Shown here: one piece after another, positions 4,743-22,499 of the stretch | Numbering within the stretch: position 1 is the first letter of the stretch | Layout of the letters: every line of letters starts with the position of its first letter | Virus record (IMG/VR): IMGVR_UViG_3300017963_000233 | DNA length: 64,000 nucleotides | Strand: one strand, 5' to 3' | Source of the DNA: a virus | The notes under the pieces: generated by a model | The model's database searches: none | Told to the model about the DNA's origin: nothing | The model's input: only the letters and a program-made list of their open reading frames with translations | Translations under genes and position numbers: made by a program

Positions 4743-4928
4743 TCACTCCTCTCCATAAAAGAATTCAAGAGCTATTTCCCATACGGGATGGGTTTCATCG
4801 TCAATCCATTCCTCACTTGCAAAATGCCACGCAGTAAGTTCCGCAAGCTCTGTTGCGGTTTCTGGTGGATCTTCGCTTTCCATGATCATGATCATTCGCT
4901 TTTTGATTTCTGGATTGGTAATTTTCAT
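4743..4928 (-). CDS. small acidic hypothetical protein
   Basis: 61 aa, abuts neighbours, GAGGG RBS. Confidence 0.6.
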   Translation of the reverse strand: MKITNPEIKKRMIMIMESEDPPETATELAELTAWHFASEEWIDDETHPVWEIALEFFYGEE

Positions 4929-8257: not shown

Positions 8258-8725
8258 TCAGATAGACTCCACATCGTTTTGATATTCGCAAAAAAGATTT
8301 GTCATATACCGTTTAAACATTGAACACATGATACGGTGACAATACCTAACCATTGGTGAACAACCAGAAACGTCGAGTCTGGCCCAATGCGCGAATAGTT
8401 GAGCCACAAGTCGGTCGTCGGCTTTCACGTAAAATGAACTGCATTTAAGTGGCCACGCGGAAAAATCAAGATCCGCCCATCGGAGATTCGCCCCTCGGAG
8501 ATCCGCCCCTCGGAGATTCGCCCCTCGGAGATCCGCCTCTCGGAGATTCGCCCATCGGAGATCCGCCTCTTGGAGATCCGCCCATCGGAGATTCGCCCAT
8601 CGGAGATTCGCCCCTCGGAGATTCGCCTCTGCATCGATTGCAATTTCCACAGCGACTTTTAACGATTCCGCCTCGGCCTCGAAAATTATGTTTCTGGTAT
8701 AACGATTTTTAATCTCAAATTTCAC
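8258..8725 (-). CDS. pentapeptide-repeat protein
   Basis: GAGGAGG RBS before GTG 8725; 11 A(N/D)Lxx repeats; N-terminus KFEIKNRYT. Confidence 0.9.
8469..8630. repeat. 15-bp tandem repeat encoding the pentapeptides
   Basis: about 11 units of AGAT(T/C)CGCC(C/T)(A/C)TCGG. Confidence 0.9.
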
Positions 8726-11397: not shown

Positions 11398-12117
11398 TTA
11401 ATTTTGTGTGGATGCCCACAGCTCCTCACTCTTTTTCCTTGAGCCAGGAGCCTTCTCATCTGAGAACTTGACAATTCTGGTCTCCTTGTCGATCACAACA
11501 TAGTAATCGAAAGGACAATACTTACGACTTATACCATCACTGATATAAGTCGTAGCGGTACTTTTCGCACCTTCAGGAAAAGCTGTCATGTACATATCGA
11601 CAAGCTGTTCCTTCGTGTACCTGCCCTCTTGGATCGCATTAGCGATCCATTGCTTCATACCGCTTTTCTTGCCACCACCAGATTTCTTTTTGCTCTGCCT
11701 CTTTTTTTCTGCTTCCTTTTGTGCCGCAAGCGCATTGCACAAAAGGAACCTTTCCTCATACATCTCCTTGCAATCCTTGTTGCAGATTGGAGAGTTGAGG
11801 TCAGGATTTGCAAACACACCGCAAAACAGTTCATTTTCCTCATCCCTGTATGCAGCGCACATCTCGTCCGTGATCTCTACCTCTGACTCTGAATTTTCTG
11901 CACTTTCCGATGGTTCAGGATCGGAAATTTCCGATGGTTCAGGATCCTGAGTGAACAAATGTGCAAATGCATCCTTTTTGAGGATCGGAGCATTATCGGA
12001 TTTGAGCTTGAGCCTCAACTCCGCAATCTCCTTTTTGGTCATTTTCTCCAACTCATCCGTCTTGATCGACGGATTCTCCTTGACCACTCGATTAATGATT
12101 TCTTGCTTTGTACTCAT
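11398..12117 (-). CDS. multidomain protein: acidic linker, Cys cluster, C-terminal winged-helix-like domain
   Basis: GAAAGGAG RBS before ATG 12117; DPEPSE duplicated (24-bp repeat); basic stretch then RYTKEQLVD...KSTATTYISD. Confidence 0.7.
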   Translation of the reverse strand: MSTKQEIINRVVKENPSIKTDELEKMTKKEIAELRLKLKSDNAPILKKDAFAHLFTQDPEPSEISDPEPSESAENSESEVEITDEMCAAYRDEENELFCGVFANPDLNSPICNKDCKEMYEERFLLCNALAAQKEAEKKRQSKKKSGGGKKSGMKQWIANAIQEGRYTKEQLVDMYMTAFPEGAKSTATTYISDGISRKYCPFDYYVVIDKETRIVKFSDEKAPGSRKKSEELWASTQN

Positions 12118-12206
12118 GATTTCTCTCCTTTCACAAAAGGTTATTGATTTGGAGCATAACCGCTCCACACATAGCATGAAAATTTCTCATGCTATGGTTG
12201 CAACAG

Positions 12207-15632: not shown

Positions 15633-15860
15633 TCATTCCACTTCATTCCACTCAAGTCTCACTACCTGCCATCCATCTCGAAGATGAACAGCGTTCCATT
15701 CTTCACTCATTTCATTATACATTCTGCTAAGTTCAAATGGAGAATCCTCTAGATCAATTGCACTGTTTGGTTGATCCAGTGCAACGAATGATTCCCATTC
15801 CTCGTCCCACCAGACACCAAGACATTCAACTACTCTACCGTCCTTCTCTACTGTCACCAT
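15633..15860 (-). CDS. highly acidic Trp-rich small protein
   Basis: GAAAGGAG RBS; 19 D/E, 5 K/R, 6 W in 75 aa. Confidence 0.65.
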   Translation of the reverse strand: MVTVEKDGRVVECLGVWWDEEWESFVALDQPNSAIDLEDSPFELSRMYNEMSEEWNAVHLRDGWQVVRLEWNEVE

Positions 15861-15960
15861 AATTCTCTCCTTTCACATATTCGGCATATCACATATCACA
15901 TATCATGCATCATGCATCATGCATCATATTGATATGCCTATTGTTTCGCAATTTGCGTTC

Positions 15961-16059
15961 TGAATCATATTCACTAAATGAATCGTATTCACTAAATGAA
16001 TCATATTCACTAAATGAATCATATTCAGTGAATCATATTCAGAAAATGAATTGCATTCA
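15961..16059. repeat. tandem array of 13-bp palindrome TGAAT-N3-ATTCA, mostly 18-bp period
   Basis: copies start at 15961, 15979, 15997, 16015, 16029, 16047. Confidence 0.9.
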
Positions 16060-16116
16060 TTGCATACAAAAAAGCGCATTACAATTGTAATGCGCTTTTC
16101 AATCTGAAATGAATTT

Positions 16117-16197
16117 TTATACAAATAGTGCGCTGAGCTGATACGAAACAATTATTGTGATCATAATTACCGAATAGTAAAACATTGCTTTTTTCAT
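16117..16197 (-). CDS. 26-aa hydrophobic peptide
   Basis: AAAGGAG RBS then MKKAMFYYSVIMITIIVSYQLSALFV*; not in ORF track. Confidence 0.5.
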   Translation of the reverse strand: MKKAMFYYSVIMITIIVSYQLSALFV

Positions 16198-16277
16198 TTT
16201 AATAATCTCCTTTTTTTATTTTATATATCGCACTATTTCACCAAAAATTTAATGAAATAGTGCTTTTTTCACAATTA

Positions 16278-16864
16278 TTCCAATAACAGTATGCTTCGCC
16301 AATTAATTGTTAGGAACTAAGACATATTGAATTGATTAATTCTTTCTTGTCTCAGTTCTTGCGCTAATTGTACTTTCGATTTTGGAATGACATCTTCAAA
16401 ATGCAAAATGTCATTTGTTTTGTGTACTTTTCGTCCAAAAACATTTTTATAATATCGATCATTTTGACTATCGGCAAGATATGTGCTGATAGTCGAAACA
16501 GCGTATTGACTATCAAATATAAATAGCGATTGGTCGATTAGACTTTTGCGTGTATAACGTGCTTCAGCTATCTTTTGTTCTAAAAAGATGAGTAAAGCAC
16601 TTCGTTTTTTGCGCTTTGATCTGTTATGCCTAGTTCGCATGTTTTCTTTTTCAGAAACATGCTTTTTAGACACAACGTACCTACGATTTTCGTTCTTTAA
16701 ACGTGCATTATCAAGTGCGATGTTTTTATAATGTTGAATAATTTCACTTTTGGTCATTGACTCAAAGTCTATGACAATCTGATTTAACTCTTGAATATCT
16801 TTAATTCTATTATTCATTTGTATGCTCACTTTCATTTTATAAGCGAAGCATACTGTTATTGGAA
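16278..16864. repeat. perfect 22-bp inverted repeats flanking one gene
   Basis: TTCCAATAACAGTATGCTTCGC at 16278-16299 and its reverse complement at 16843-16864. Confidence 0.95.
16317..16835 (-). CDS. basic protein with winged-helix-like domain, paralogous to 11398-12117 C-terminus
   Basis: RYTRKSLIDQ...AVSTISTYLAD vs RYTKEQLVDM...AKSTATTYISD; start uncertain (16835 or 16817). Confidence 0.6.
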   Translation of the reverse strand: MKVSIQMNNRIKDIQELNQIVIDFESMTKSEIIQHYKNIALDNARLKNENRRYVVSKKHVSEKENMRTRHNRSKRKKRSALLIFLEQKIAEARYTRKSLIDQSLFIFDSQYAVSTISTYLADSQNDRYYKNVFGRKVHKTNDILHFEDVIPKSKVQLAQELRQERINQFNMS

Positions 16865-17705
16865 CAATGATGATGCAATAGGCATTCAATTGAATGCCTA
16901 TTGCATCTTTTTTTGTGAAAAGAGTGAAAAGAGTGAACGTTATAATCTGATATCAACTCTTATGTCATACTCGAAGTGTATTTATTGAATCGATTGAAGT
17001 CGTTTTTCGTTCGTGCTTCAGTATAATGCATTATACTTTGAACAAAATGCGCATTGCATCGGATCTAAAGATCGACTTAGCATGTCATATCGCATGATCA
17101 AACTATGTCAATGATCATTTTCATTCCTATTTGAATGAGCTATGCATCACTCATTCTTTAGGAATGATCGGACGATATCGCTTTTAAGTCATCGACGCCA
17201 AAAAATAAGTATCGACTTTTCAACTTGTTTTTGACATAAGCACAATTGGCTATATAGCCAATTTAATGATATCGATTATTATGCTACTCGACGCAATCAA
17301 TGTTTAGATCACTGCTAAAGTACTGATTAAATCAGTTTTCTACTTGAAACTAGCTTCGATGCCCAAAGTCGTTGACATCTTAAAATTGACCTAGACACCG
17401 ATTGTGTCTCATAACAACGTTTTATATGCGATACATTGATTAATAAGAGTCAAGACATACTCAGTCTATTAGGACTTTCACCTAATAGACATGTCTCATG
17501 AAGTATCGGTATTAAGACTTCTATCTTGACTATCTGAATAGACATAGTGCCTATATACGTAGCAATGATAATGCCAATATTAATAAGTTTTATTATATCA
17601 GCCCTAAAAAGACAATATATCCAATTATATCAACATGTTATATTCCAAAAAAATATTTTTTAAAAATAAAACACCAAAAGTAGCCTATTAAATCTTAATA
17701 AAGAA

Positions 17706-17818
17706 TGACAAAAAATGTCATAATGATATCAATAGCTTACACAATTACTAAAATAAACTATTGATATCATTGAATAATTCATTGACAAAAAATGTCACTA
17801 TACTGACAAAAATTGTCA
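17706..17818. promoter_or_regulatory. three TGACA-N5-TGTCA palindromic sites
   Basis: 17706-17720, 17783-17797, 17804-17818. Confidence 0.6.
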
Positions 17819-18052
17819 CTATCAATAGAATAGAGAATAAGAGAATAATCCCAAGACAAAGATTGTGTATAGCATTTACTGAAGTCGCATCACATAGGAT
17901 TATAGGTGTAGAATCAATGCAATGAATAGCAATCATCAGTGATCATTCAATTGTAGGCTCATGTGTAGCAATGTAATAAATGAATGTGCTGTAGTTCTTA
18001 TGTGTCTTGATGAGTCATGCATTATGCAATGGTACACTATTGCATTATGCAA

Positions 18053-18225
18053 TGATTCATATTCATAAACTAAATGGCATTCATTAAATCAATCAAATAA
18101 AATGAATCATATTCAGTATTTAAATGGCGTTCATTTATCTGTGCAGACTATAAAGTTGACATAAGATATATTATCAGACACTCGATGAGATAGGTGAATC
18201 GCATTCAAAAAATGAATCGCATTCA
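18053..18225. repeat. second cluster of TGAAT-N3-ATTCA sites
   Basis: 18103, 18195, 18213 (18-bp spacing) and a variant at 18053. Confidence 0.8.
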
Positions 18226-18283
18226 TTTAATGACCCCTCTTCAAATCTTGAATCGGATTTTCGATGCAGCGCGTATGGGACCC

Positions 18284-18489
18284 CATCACAAAATATTTTC
18301 TGCATTTTGCCTCGGAATTTATTCCATTCCATATTAGCCTTTAGCCTTTAGCTCATCACAAAATATTTTTCATATTTTACCGTGAAATGTTTTTCCATCA
18401 ATTCCATATTAGCCTTTGGCCTTTAGCCTTTAGCCTTTAGCTCATCACAAAATATTTTCTGCATTTTGCCTCGGAATTTATTCCATTCC
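18284..18489. repeat. compound tandem repeat with GCCTTTA heptamer runs
   Basis: 47-bp unit identical at 18284-18330 and 18443-18489, degenerate copy at 18354; separated by (GCCTTTA)n. Confidence 0.9.
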
Positions 18490-18716
18490 GCATGTGGTAA
18501 TAGAATTACATTGGTGTTTTAGGTTTTTATAGGGTCTGACTGACTCTAAATTACATTGCGGAAAGAGGTAATCAGAGAAAATCAATGGTTATTGATGAAA
18601 TTACATTGCTTTTATTTTAAATTTTCATTGGATTGGTTGTAATCATGTTTTATTGTCTTTATTTGATGTTTTAGTTTCAGTGTATGGAATGGGAGAATGT
18701 ATTGATTTTTTAGTTT

Positions 18717-19864: not shown

Positions 19865-20605
19865 ATGGAGGTGATGCGAATGGCTGTTCCAGTTAGAAAA
19901 AACAACGGTAATGTGAAGATGGCGGATCTGATTGTGGAGTCGAAGCCAAAGGAGAAAAAGAAGAGGAAGGTAAAACCGAAGCAGAGAAAGGGGATTGGAA
20001 GGCCCCATCAGCATTTGGAGGAGGGGAACAGGAAAAGCGATAAGCGGTCTGTGTACGGATTGCGGGGGACGTATGCGGAGCGGTTTGGGCAGATGCAGAT
20101 CACAAAAGGCACCAAGAACGGGATGAAGCTCGTTTCTTGGGATGCTATACCAGAATGCAGAGAATCGTGTCCTATTGCGGAGAAGTGCCCCTACACTGGC
20201 AAAAAGAAATGTACAGTGATGAAATCGTATGTTGGAAGTGCAGCGAGTATCATACAGAACAACTACGATCTGGATGAGGCGGATATGTTGAGGGTGGGGC
20301 TTCATCTGTTGCCGTTGTACAGGAATCTTTGTCGTCTTCAGATTGAGGAATTCGCGTTGGAGGGGATCACGAGAGTCAATAAGGCTGGGAGTACGGTGTT
20401 GCATCCTATCTACGATTCGATCAAAGCGCATGTTTCAGCGATAGAGAGTTTGTGGAAGGCGCTGGGGCTGCTTAATAACGCGAAGAAAAAGAGAAAGACG
20501 GATATTGAAAAGTATCACCATGACAGGTACGTACCGACGGAGGTGCCTACGGTGGGTGATATCGTCAACGGGAACCCAGACTACTACGACACTTTGAGTG
20601 AGTGA
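19865..20605 (+). CDS. terS: terminase small subunit (probable)
   Basis: directly upstream of TerL; LHPIYDSI....IESLWKALGL resembles P27-type TerS C-terminus. Confidence 0.6.
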   Translation: MEVMRMAVPVRKNNGNVKMADLIVESKPKEKKKRKVKPKQRKGIGRPHQHLEEGNRKSDKRSVYGLRGTYAERFGQMQITKGTKNGMKLVSWDAIPECRESCPIAEKCPYTGKKKCTVMKSYVGSAASIIQNNYDLDEADMLRVGLHLLPLYRNLCRLQIEEFALEGITRVNKAGSTVLHPIYDSIKAHVSAIESLWKALGLLNNAKKKRKTDIEKYHHDRYVPTEVPTVGDIVNGNPDYYDTLSE

Positions 20606-22499
20606 TGCGATGGTACCTTTACGTGCCTCGGCCCGCTTGAAAGCCGATAGAGTCAAGTCGATGCAAGATTACAGGAATGGGGCGGAGGGCTTCATTCTTT
20701 GGTGTGAAGATAAAGTCAGAATTCCCATCTACCCACCAGGCTCCGACATACCTGAATATCATTCGATGGGCAAATTGCCCGATTCCCCGCATCCAGACAC
20801 CGGAAGAAGCTACAAGACGATTTGGGATGGACAAAAGAAGATGATCCGCAAAGCGTTGGTGATGAATCAGGGGAAATTCGTTTATCGTTTGATTATTTTG
20901 TGCTGGATGCGGGGGGAAGGGAAGTCTTTGCTGGCGTGTTTGATTCAATTGTGGAAATTCTTTTGCTGGCCAAGGCAACAGATCATGCTTGGGGCGAACA
21001 GCAAGGACCAAGTGAAGTTCGTGCATTATGATATTATGCGGGATATCGTGATAAACTCGCCGCAGCTCTTGAGTGTTGTAGGGAAAAGGAATATTCAAGA
21101 GAAAGAGATTCGTTTGAAGGATTCAAGCGGCAATATCAGGTCGATTATCAGATCGATATCGAGTTTTTCAGGTATCGTGTCGAATATCACTGGTTTCACT
21201 TTTTCAGAGATATTCGAAATGAAAAATCCCAAGTTCTTTGTTCAGCTTTATGGATCTATAAGGAACATACCGAATGCAATCGGTGTGATCGACAGTACTG
21301 TTAGCAGCAAACAGCACATCCTCTACCAACAATATCAGAATTGGTTGACTGGAAAGAGCGGGGGGTTGTTTTTCGATTATCGTTATTCGAAGTCGGGGGA
21401 TCATAGAGATTACTGGAACCCGATGATGACGCAATCCCAACTCGAAGACTACCGCGCATCCTTCCCCTTTGGTGAATTCGAAAGATACTTCCTGAATTTG
21501 TGGGAAGCTGGGCACATGCAGATATTCTCTGATGAGATGGTAGAGGAAATGGGGTATATGGGGATTGACGGTGAACTGCTGAACCACACAGATGTGATCG
21601 AGAACGTGAACAAGAAAAATGAATTGATCAAAAGACTTTCGATTGCGACGAAGAAGGAATGGGATGATGGAGTAAGAGAAACGGAAGATTTGATAACAGG
21701 TATCGATCACAGAATAATCCCAGTCACAAATTACTACAGCTTGCATGACAACTTCGGATTTCATAGACCTGTATCGATGGAGTCACTTGCCAATATTGGT
21801 CGTGTTTTGGATACGGATTGGCTTATATTGGCTGGTGCTGATATGGGAGATCCGATGGCGTTAAGGGGCAATGCAAGATCGATATTCACTTGTGTGGCGA
21901 AGGGGTTGCCGGGGTCCAAGTCCAATCCTCATGTCGTGTCTATGGAGACAGCGGTTTTGAAATTCGTTTATATCGTGTTGCATATTTTCAATATTGAAAA
22001 CCATGCCGTGAACACGTTGAAGGAACAGGCGGATATGTGCAATGATGAATATGATGGAATCGATGTGTTTTGCGGTGAGCGTTACGGATTGTGGGATATG
22101 CAGGAATGGTGCAAAGATAGAGATATCGAGTTCATTCCTATATTCCCGAATTATGCGAGGCAGAAAGAGGCGTTCAAAGAATTCTACGATTCTTTGAAAG
22201 AGGGAAGATTCAAGTGTCCAGATGTCAAAATTCCAGGCTCCAAGAAAGAGGATATATTGAGGGAGGAGCTTGAGAAATTCGATCATGAAACGAGAATAGG
22301 ACCGACGGGACAGGAGAGTGGGTGGTTTGGAAGTCCTGAAAAACTTGAAAAATATGGTGCCCAAGATGACTCGGTGTTCAGTATAGGATGGACTTTGTAT
22401 GGGGGCAAAGACAAGGGACCATCTGATTTCAGAGTAAGAAAATCCGCCATGAGCTTTGGCGTTTTCATTGAAAACAAGGCTTTAATGGGTCAATATTGA
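20598..22499 (+). CDS. terL: terminase large subunit
   Basis: Walker A RGEGKS, GANSKDQ, coupling motif IDSTVS, nuclease GADMG and QDDSVFS. Confidence 0.85.
   Translation: MSDAMVPLRASARLKADRVKSMQDYRNGAEGFILWCEDKVRIPIYPPGSDIPEYHSMGKLPDSPHPDTGRSYKTIWDGQKKMIRKALVMNQGKFVYRLIILCWMRGEGKSLLACLIQLWKFFCWPRQQIMLGANSKDQVKFVHYDIMRDIVINSPQLLSVVGKRNIQEKEIRLKDSSGNIRSIIRSISSFSGIVSNITGFTFSEIFEMKNPKFFVQLYGSIRNIPNAIGVIDSTVSSKQHILYQQYQNWLTGKSGGLFFDYRYSKSGDHRDYWNPMMTQSQLEDYRASFPFGEFERYFLNLWEAGHMQIFSDEMVEEMGYMGIDGELLNHTDVIENVNKKNELIKRLSIATKKEWDDGVRETEDLITGIDHRIIPVTNYYSLHDNFGFHRPVSMESLANIGRVLDTDWLILAGADMGDPMALRGNARSIFTCVAKGLPGSKSNPHVVSMETAVLKFVYIVLHIFNIENHAVNTLKEQADMCNDEYDGIDVFCGERYGLWDMQEWCKDRDIEFIPIFPNYARQKEAFKEFYDSLKEGRFKCPDVKIPGSKKEDILREELEKFDHETRIGPTGQESGWFGSPEKLEKYGAQDDSVFSIGWTLYGGKDKGPSDFRVRKSAMSFGVFIENKALMGQY

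Follow-up and report, generated by a model that had tools for sequence, protein, structure and literature searches.

The stretch of viral DNA analysed here (IMG/VR record IMGVR_UViG_3300017963_000233; 64,000 nucleotides (nt), as a whole called the window below) contains a divergent junction from which a leftward early operon and rightward late genes are read. Between them lies a segment of 2.3 kb, hereafter the island, in which the word VNGG and its complement CCNB are nearly gone (V is A, C or G; B is C, G or T; N is any nucleotide). Only a winged-helix protein is encoded within the island. The anti-defence-like genes of the early operon (ArdC-N-like, DUF932, pentapeptide-repeat and DUF2786 genes) adjoin it and lie outside.

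Odds ratios were symmetrised over both strands, and GG was counted on either strand. Positions 15884–18233 hold 48 GG/CC against 110 expected (observed/expected ratio, O/E, 0.44; Poisson P = 2e-11 for 48 or fewer), and the dinucleotide count for the remainder of the window gives 1.04. In a scan of the window, the next-lowest non-overlapping segment of 2.35 kb has an O/E of 0.77. The edges are sharp: GG/CC is dense through position 15883 and dense again starting at 18234, with CCCC. A preliminary description, made from the letters of the window, had reported a sharply bounded GG/CC-poor segment at 15880–18230 and an abrupt return of these dinucleotides near 18233, and both hold. Its limits enclose 49 GG+CC (21 GG and 28 CC on the plus strand; odds ratio 0.44), its hand count of 17 in 16321–17340 was exact (O/E 0.31), and the comparison with background that it had proposed gives 0.44 versus 1.03 for the whole window and 1.03–1.04 outside the island (Poisson P 2e-11). 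Its estimate of about 33% for the GC content needs correction, the computed value being 30.7% in the segment versus 41% for the window. It had also listed CG, GC, TCGA, TGCA and CATG as common, in agreement with the raised odds ratios of GC (1.6), CG (1.1) and CA/TG (1.4) in the island; TCGA, TGCA, GCGC and CATG are still common there.

The residual GG dinucleotides define the missing word more precisely. A thymine stands two bases 5' of GG in 43 of the 48 cases (binomial P 4e-15), an adenine in five, and a cytosine or guanine in none. TNGG is observed 43 times versus 38 expected, ANGG five times versus 38, and CNGG and GNGG never, versus 17 expected for each; for VNGG as a whole the numbers are 5 and 72. 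Since TNGG occurs at its expected rate and VNGG is nearly gone, the island is not leaky: the ban on the narrower word VNGG/CCNB is strict. It spans both strands and both the coding and the non-coding DNA of the island. In the window outside 15884–18233, other words deviate as well, CTAG being strongly avoided (9 observed versus 50 expected) and TCGA in excess (357 versus 292).

Table 1. Features of the island and its surroundings, with positions in the window
Feature	Position	Strand	Description
Island	15884..18233	none	VNGG/CCNB nearly gone; divergent control region between leftward early operon and rightward late genes
Left-edge array	15961..16065		six 13-nt palindromes TGAAT-N3-ATTCA, 18-nt spacing (14 once)
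Right-edge array	18047..18230		TGAAT-N3-ATTCA, three perfect copies (18103, 18195, 18213) and degenerate ones
Island gene	16320..16823	-	sole convincing gene of the island; winged-helix protein, 166–168 amino acids
Inverted repeat I1, left arm	16280..16299		perfect 20 nt, CCAATAACAGTATGCTTCGC; within a 41-nt imperfect inverted repeat
Inverted repeat I1, right arm	16843..16862		immediately 5' of the start codon of the island gene
Palindrome I8	16872..16907		perfect 18+18 nt, then a T-run on the plus strand; terminator-like hairpin
Stretch free of open reading frames	16908..17700		without Rfam match, without transfer RNA
TGACA-N5-TGTCA palindromes	17706..17818		three copies (17706, 17783, 17804), found nowhere else in the window
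First gene of the leftward early (anti-defence-like) operon	15633..15860	-	ribosome-binding site GGAG at 15866–15871, just outside the island edge
Large terminase subunit	20598..22499	+	in the rightward late genes; anchor for finding relatives
Paralogue of the island winged-helix domain	11398..12177	-	outside the island; has the Gly/Pro residues missing from the island copy

We regard the segment as a divergent early/late control module composed of repeat arrays, operators, a winged-helix gene and a stretch free of open reading frames (ORFs) (Table 1). All nine copies of TGAAT-N3-ATTCA in the window sit at the two edges of the island, and the distance between the left and right arrays is about 2.05 kb (2,042–2,056 nt). 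These palindromes are probably binding sites for a dimeric protein. The perfect inverted repeat I1 flanks the island gene on both sides. The TGACA-N5-TGTCA palindromes also occur in the islands of two relatives described below, L012 (three copies) and L013 (one copy), both of which have a homologous winged-helix protein, and they are candidate operators of that protein. About 1.3 kb of the island is ORF-free, without Rfam match or transfer RNA. The island also has several hairpins. An Rfam search at a permissive threshold gave chance-level matches only, and a transfer RNA search gave none. Terminator-like hairpins number five versus 1.6 in shuffled sequences; a scan for sigma-70 promoters was uninformative (20 sites versus 19.5 in shuffles).

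Two further observations concern the sequences around these features. A GG-free leader is found 5' of the island gene at 16826–16845 and at 4835–4855 of L012, with ATGAAAGTGAGCA followed after 5–7 nt by ATG; GAAAGTGAGCA is conserved 5' of the start codon in the two phages, whose terminases are 50% identical. The leader may serve as an unusual ribosome-binding region. Immediately to the right of the island, at 18284–18490, a 47-nt unit occurs three times (two of the copies identical), interleaved with TTAGCC/TTTAGCC repeats; the site may have a role in packaging or regulation.

The island protein and its paralogues

The island protein is basic and helical and contains one Gly, one Pro and no Trp, much as the preliminary description had stated for the enclosed reading frame. 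In an AlphaFold2 model, the last 75 residues fold as a winged helix (predicted local distance difference test score above 95), with helices at 76–86, 92–102 and 109–120 and strands at 133–136 and 139–142. Foldseek searches with the model gave weak matches (E ≥0.16), all of them winged-helix domains (BirA, Fur, ScpB, BlaI, PhoB), and no Pfam family matches the domain. As modelled, the C-terminus is a winged-helix domain of the DNA-binding type, with three helices followed by a beta-hairpin wing.

The protein is homologous to the island proteins of L012 and L013, and its closest database relatives are without Gly, Pro and Trp. The family of this domain has 472 representatives, and about 14 of the best 153 lack the three amino acids. 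The remaining members keep conserved Gly and Pro residues in the motifs EGKYT or EG.YT, FPE and KNPKY, at which the island copies have Ala, Asn or Asp. The island genes of L012, L013, G001, L024 and L022 encode proteins without any Gly, Pro or Trp. The ban acting on DNA has stripped the three amino acids from the proteins encoded in the islands.

The same domain is also found in a protein whose gene lies between those for QueE and QueC, both in the genome to which the window belongs and in the related genome G002, and this placement recurs in additional contigs taken from the family list regardless of their context. The island protein and the que-cluster protein are paralogues, the former recoded. 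A profile of the domain gave no match in G005, G006, G010, G011 and G012, DpdA-positive genomes included, and is uninformative for these.

Islands and DpdA in related phages

Relatives were collected by terminase searches of IMG/VR and JGI metagenomes, which gave about 170 loci at 42–61% identity. Loci L012 and L013 are the island loci of genomes G002 and G003, L016 and L028 belong to G001, L035 to G002, and L040 to the window's own genome. Cultured phages, searched by DNA and by terminase, yielded no relative, and no isolate with this terminase family was found.

Long runs without a single GG or CC lie 5' of the terminase in L012 (2,629 nt), G001 (about 2.45 kb), L088 (2,303 nt), L054 (1,760 nt), L117 (1,392 nt), L091 (1,261 nt), L056 (1,186 nt) and L173 (1,049 nt). 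Their GC content varies from 26 to 52%. Relatives at 45–58% terminase identity have such runs, 1–2.6 kb long, at the same divergent early/late junction as in the window. Among dinucleotides, only GG/CC shows long empty runs at this place in the family. In G002, a complete genome of 91 kb, the island is the only GG/CC-free region, situated where the early/replication arm and the structural arm diverge. G001 has the layout seen in the window, with two arrays of its own 19-nt palindromic repeats, ACGCATGCGCA, placed 2,087 nt apart. The banned word depends on the lineage: it is VNGG in the phage of the window and any GG/CC in L012, G001 and most relatives. From these comparisons, the reader of the word is evidently sequence-specific and differs between lineages.

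The preliminary description had proposed selection at the level of DNA against a word containing GG/CC. This is upheld by the conservation of the island in place among phages with terminases of about 50% identity, by its absolute form in several relatives, by its extension to both strands, and by the recoding of the proteins. The same description had offered foreign origin as the simpler alternative, which we reject: islands occupy the same place in the relatives, and paralogues of the island protein are encoded in the phage's own genome.

Two side observations were made on these genomes. G002 and G003 are strongly depleted of CpG (odds ratio 0.40–0.42) and their islands L012 and L013 are not (0.90–0.99); the island thus escapes a second genome-wide compositional rule. 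In G001, the 30-nt 'direct terminal repeat' on which its IMG/VR completeness call is based occurs at 1–30, 88888–88917 and 90975–91004. Because the third copy of this repeat lies inside the island, the ends of the G001 contig fall on an island-internal repeat.

The window's own genome, available as an 85.7-kb ENA contig, encodes QueD, QueE, QueC, QueF, FolE and DpdA about 3–8 kb to the left of the window start. The cluster (L040:13820–18563) has the order QueD, QueE, a 211-residue winged-helix protein, QueC, QueF, FolE, an ORF of 68 amino acids, and DpdA. The dpdA gene (L040:17559–18563) matches phrog_887 (E 5e-45), and its product and the DpdA of G002 share 39% identity; the genes beside it correspond to PTPS, radical SAM, QueC, QueF and GTP cyclohydrolase I. 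In the early arm of G002, which carries the same gene set, a Pfam sweep identified QueC, FolE, QueD and a QueE-like radical SAM protein, and PHROGs identified a DpdA-type transglycosylase. G001 has DpdA and lacks QueC. The Pfam family PF01702 (TGT) misses these DpdA proteins and has no match in G001, G002 and G003.

Phage DpdA enzymes described in the literature act at motifs of 2–3 nt: CAjan uses GA and GGC (PMC7544227), Iggy GA (PMC10484667). Phages that bear QueF insert preQ1 (PMC10516641). Because the window's phage encodes DpdA and the full preQ1 pathway, it is predicted to swap some of its guanines for 7-deazaguanine. The presence of QueF makes preQ1 or a derivative (dPreQ1) the most likely base (PMC10516641).

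The co-occurrence of DpdA and the island was tabulated for the large genomes, with the lowest 1-kb window of each taken as the island O/E. Islands are present in nine of the ten DpdA-positive genomes: the window's genome (0.31), G001, G002 and G006 (0.00 each), G003 (0.04), G007 (0.08), G004 (0.10), G008 (0.16) and G009 (0.49). The exception is G010, at 0.75. The values for the three DpdA-negative genomes are 0.89 in G011 (100% complete), 0.74 in G012 (79% complete) and 0.58 in G005 (72% complete). At the same divergence point, G011 carries an ORF-poor, AT-rich region of 2.6 kb with a GG/CC O/E of 1.24. G011 is therefore a natural control, in which the region is kept and the ban is absent without DpdA.

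Possible readers of the missing word

We lean, tentatively, towards a reading in which the phage's own guanine-directed marking acts at the missing word, so that the island alone is left unmarked in the genome; we rate it as quite possible and short of probable. Selection on double-stranded DNA would clear the control module of a short guanine-containing word, while DpdA and the preQ1 pathway would place 7-deazaguanine at a short motif elsewhere in the virion DNA. The motif-free module would then enter the cell as the sole ordinary, unmarked DNA. It would be readable by proteins that bind in the major groove, such as the island winged-helix protein and the host transcription machinery, and it would evade host defences that attack 7-deazaguanine DNA, of which glycosylases are a described example (bioRxiv 10.1101/2025.10.29.685425). 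A possible reason for needing such a zone is that 7-deazaguanines change the major groove shown by operators and promoters. A more specific form of this reading, which we hold with greater reserve, is that the family spells a single regulatory module with a reduced DNA alphabet so as to keep its own DpdA from marking it, that the missing word would be the target of the enzyme (GG in most lineages, VNGG here), and that the recoded winged-helix protein may act on the module at the start of infection.

The preliminary description had suggested three readers. Among them, the DpdA and que genes, the co-occurrence and the que-cluster paralogue circumstantially favour the phage's own modification motif. 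Restriction sites in general do not fit, given that TCGA, TGCA, GCGC and CATG are common in the island. A methyltransferase as the reader was rejected, as classical DNA methyltransferases are absent from G001, G002 and G003, all of which have strict islands.

Several observations weigh against marking by DpdA as the general cause. The cultured Rhizobium phage RHEph10 (JX483881; genomic GC 60%) has a GG/CC-free island of 1.15 kb at 98,834–99,982, and tblastn searches of this phage detected no DpdA, QueC, QueD, QueE or FolE. Because RHEph10 has an island without DpdA, DpdA is not the reader everywhere. Conversely, no island from which the phage's motif or any dinucleotide is missing exists in CAjan, in Iggy or in the Rhizobium phage RHph_Y17, which also bears DpdA, and G010 in the family itself has DpdA without an island. 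The terminase tree is a polytomy, and the three DpdA-negative, island-poor genomes may represent one loss. CCGG, which is a VNGG site, is avoided in the window outside the island (40 observed versus 97 expected), and full protection by marking predicts otherwise. A palindrome-avoidance test, which assumes that GG/CC palindromes are less avoided if marked, gave a mixed and partly unfavourable picture: the values are 0.90 versus 0.79 for 4-mers and 0.56 versus 0.74 for 6-mers in G002, and 0.55 versus 0.89 for 4-mers in the window. The test has little power, since hardly any effect is seen in CAjan and Iggy, which served as positive controls.

The alternative that we take most seriously, while considering it unlikely, is a reader of GG/CC in the host, either a CRISPR (clustered regularly interspaced short palindromic repeats) effector or spacer-acquisition system with an NGG or CC protospacer adjacent motif (PAM), or a nuclease or nickase with a 2–4-nt site, attacking the DNA that is exposed first. 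The island would be exposed at a genome end or through transcription-driven entry and would have to survive naked until the adjacent early anti-defence operon was switched on; the products of that operon and DpdA marking would later protect the remaining DNA. The position of the island directly 5' of the operon with ArdC-N-like, DUF932, pentapeptide-repeat and DUF2786 genes agrees with this, as do the RHEph10 island without DpdA, the complex repeats at 18284–18490, of a kind found near packaging sites, and the precedents for avoidance in early-entering DNA, namely Autographiviridae facing type I restriction-modification (PMC12455610) and the first-step-transfer DNA of T5 and BF23 (PMC10644984). 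However, no known PAM reader spares a T two bases 5' of GG, and the ban follows the phage DpdA rather than an obvious shift of host. Relatives with 31–58% GC, hence with very different hosts, nevertheless share the word, and two assemblies of the window's phage begin at different places, with no sign of the island as a physical end. PAM avoidance by itself explains neither the TNGG exemption nor the link to DpdA. It is improbable that the word is avoided for a physical or protein-binding need, with no enzyme reading it and with GG/CC disturbing looping between the arrays, unwinding of an origin or spreading of a coating protein. The recurrence of paired palindrome arrays at a similar distance in distant relatives (2,042–2,056 nt here, 2,087 nt in G001) and the ORF-poor, AT-rich character of the region would suit such a need, but G011 keeps a region of this kind with GG/CC at 1.24 of expectation. 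AT-richness is not the point either, because the islands of G001 and L088 reach 45–52% GC with zero GG/CC, and the TNGG exemption points to base-specific recognition.

A constraint on RNA, by which island transcripts would avoid GG/CC to escape a ribonuclease or to be free of Shine-Dalgarno-like or Rho-loading sequences, has very little probability in our view. The GG-free ribosome-binding regions of island genes, with GAAAGTGAGCA conserved here and in L012, are in line with it, but both strands are banned equally (21 and 28 residual dinucleotides here, 0 and 0 in L012). Moreover, the ban extends to non-coding parts and holds whether the island gene is on the minus strand (window, L012, G001) or on the plus strand (L024, L022), and TC is still common, so that YC sites for Rho are not avoided. 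Least credible of all is recently imported foreign DNA or a local mutational bias. A GC content 10 points below the rest of the window and a distinct dinucleotide signature would be expected of either, but islands sit at the same place in family members whose terminases are about 50% identical, the ban admits no exception in many of them, and the island protein has paralogues elsewhere in the same genome. The mutational variant was rejected separately, there being no excess of the decay products of GG/CC: CT/AG and TC/GA are not raised.

Relation to known systems and implications

A literature search found no description of a modified phage genome with a zone from which a motif or a dinucleotide is missing. 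What is new here is the exact word VNGG, the family-wide survey, the co-occurrence with DpdA together with its natural control, the que-cluster paralogue, and the DpdA-free counter-example. The DpdA systems of CAjan, of Iggy and of the preQ1-inserting phages (PMC7544227, PMC10484667, PMC10516641) share with the present case a guanine-containing word of 2–4 nt as the unit. They differ in that CAjan and Iggy are without a motif-free zone, and the cluster of the window's phage has an extra winged-helix protein between QueE and QueC. In T5/BF23 (PMC10644984) and Autographiviridae (PMC12455610), a target word is likewise missing from a bounded segment beside early anti-defence genes and retained in the rest of the genome. 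Their avoided words are, however, a few restriction sites of 5–7 nt, whereas here a word of 2–4 nt, expected 70–250 times, is erased and the proteins are recoded. Genome-wide depletion of restriction sites or PAMs also leaves a short DNA word under-represented by selection. In contrast, the depletion described here is local, touching 2.3 kb of a genome of about 86 kb; it is almost complete there and does not depend on palindromy, and the genome-wide form is not observed (O/E 1.04 outside the island). The RHEph10 island is free of the same word, GG/CC, and is of about the same size (1.15 kb), but the phage family and the island genes differ, RHEph10 lacks DpdA, and its proteins gp147 and gp148 are without similarity to the winged-helix domain. 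The annotated gp148 (226 amino acids, rich in Cys and Arg) looks like a call on the wrong strand.

If the link to DpdA is true, a genome alone would be enough to predict which sequence an uncharacterised DNA-modifying enzyme targets, namely the word that its island lacks. The GG and VNGG lineages would then provide testable pairs of enzyme and word, and motif-free islands would offer a general route to the specificity of phage DNA-marking enzymes. On the same condition, heavily marked phage genomes would need a deliberately unmarked zone, which would be a weak point: hidden from defences that recognise modified bases, it would be open to ordinary readers. If the reader is instead a host factor, a word of 2–4 nt would be lethal in only 2 kb of a phage genome, which would point to an undescribed activity. 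Whatever the reader, the islands are a rare case in which a rule at the level of DNA strips three amino acids from real, conserved proteins. The form of the trait without DpdA could be studied at the bench in the cultured RHEph10.

Some minor observations were made elsewhere in these genomes. Within the pentapeptide-repeat gene, at 8447–8660, there is a run of 193 nt free of AC/GT and a run of 213 nt free of TA, probably a by-product of the repeat. Beyond the DpdA cluster in L040 lie a sliding-clamp-like gene and a gene for a family A DNA polymerase fused to a uracil-DNA glycosylase. In G002, L035:1–3798 encodes a DNA polymerase A of 1,265 amino acids that has a uracil-DNA-glycosylase domain at its N-terminus and whose polymerase part is interrupted by an intein-splicing domain.

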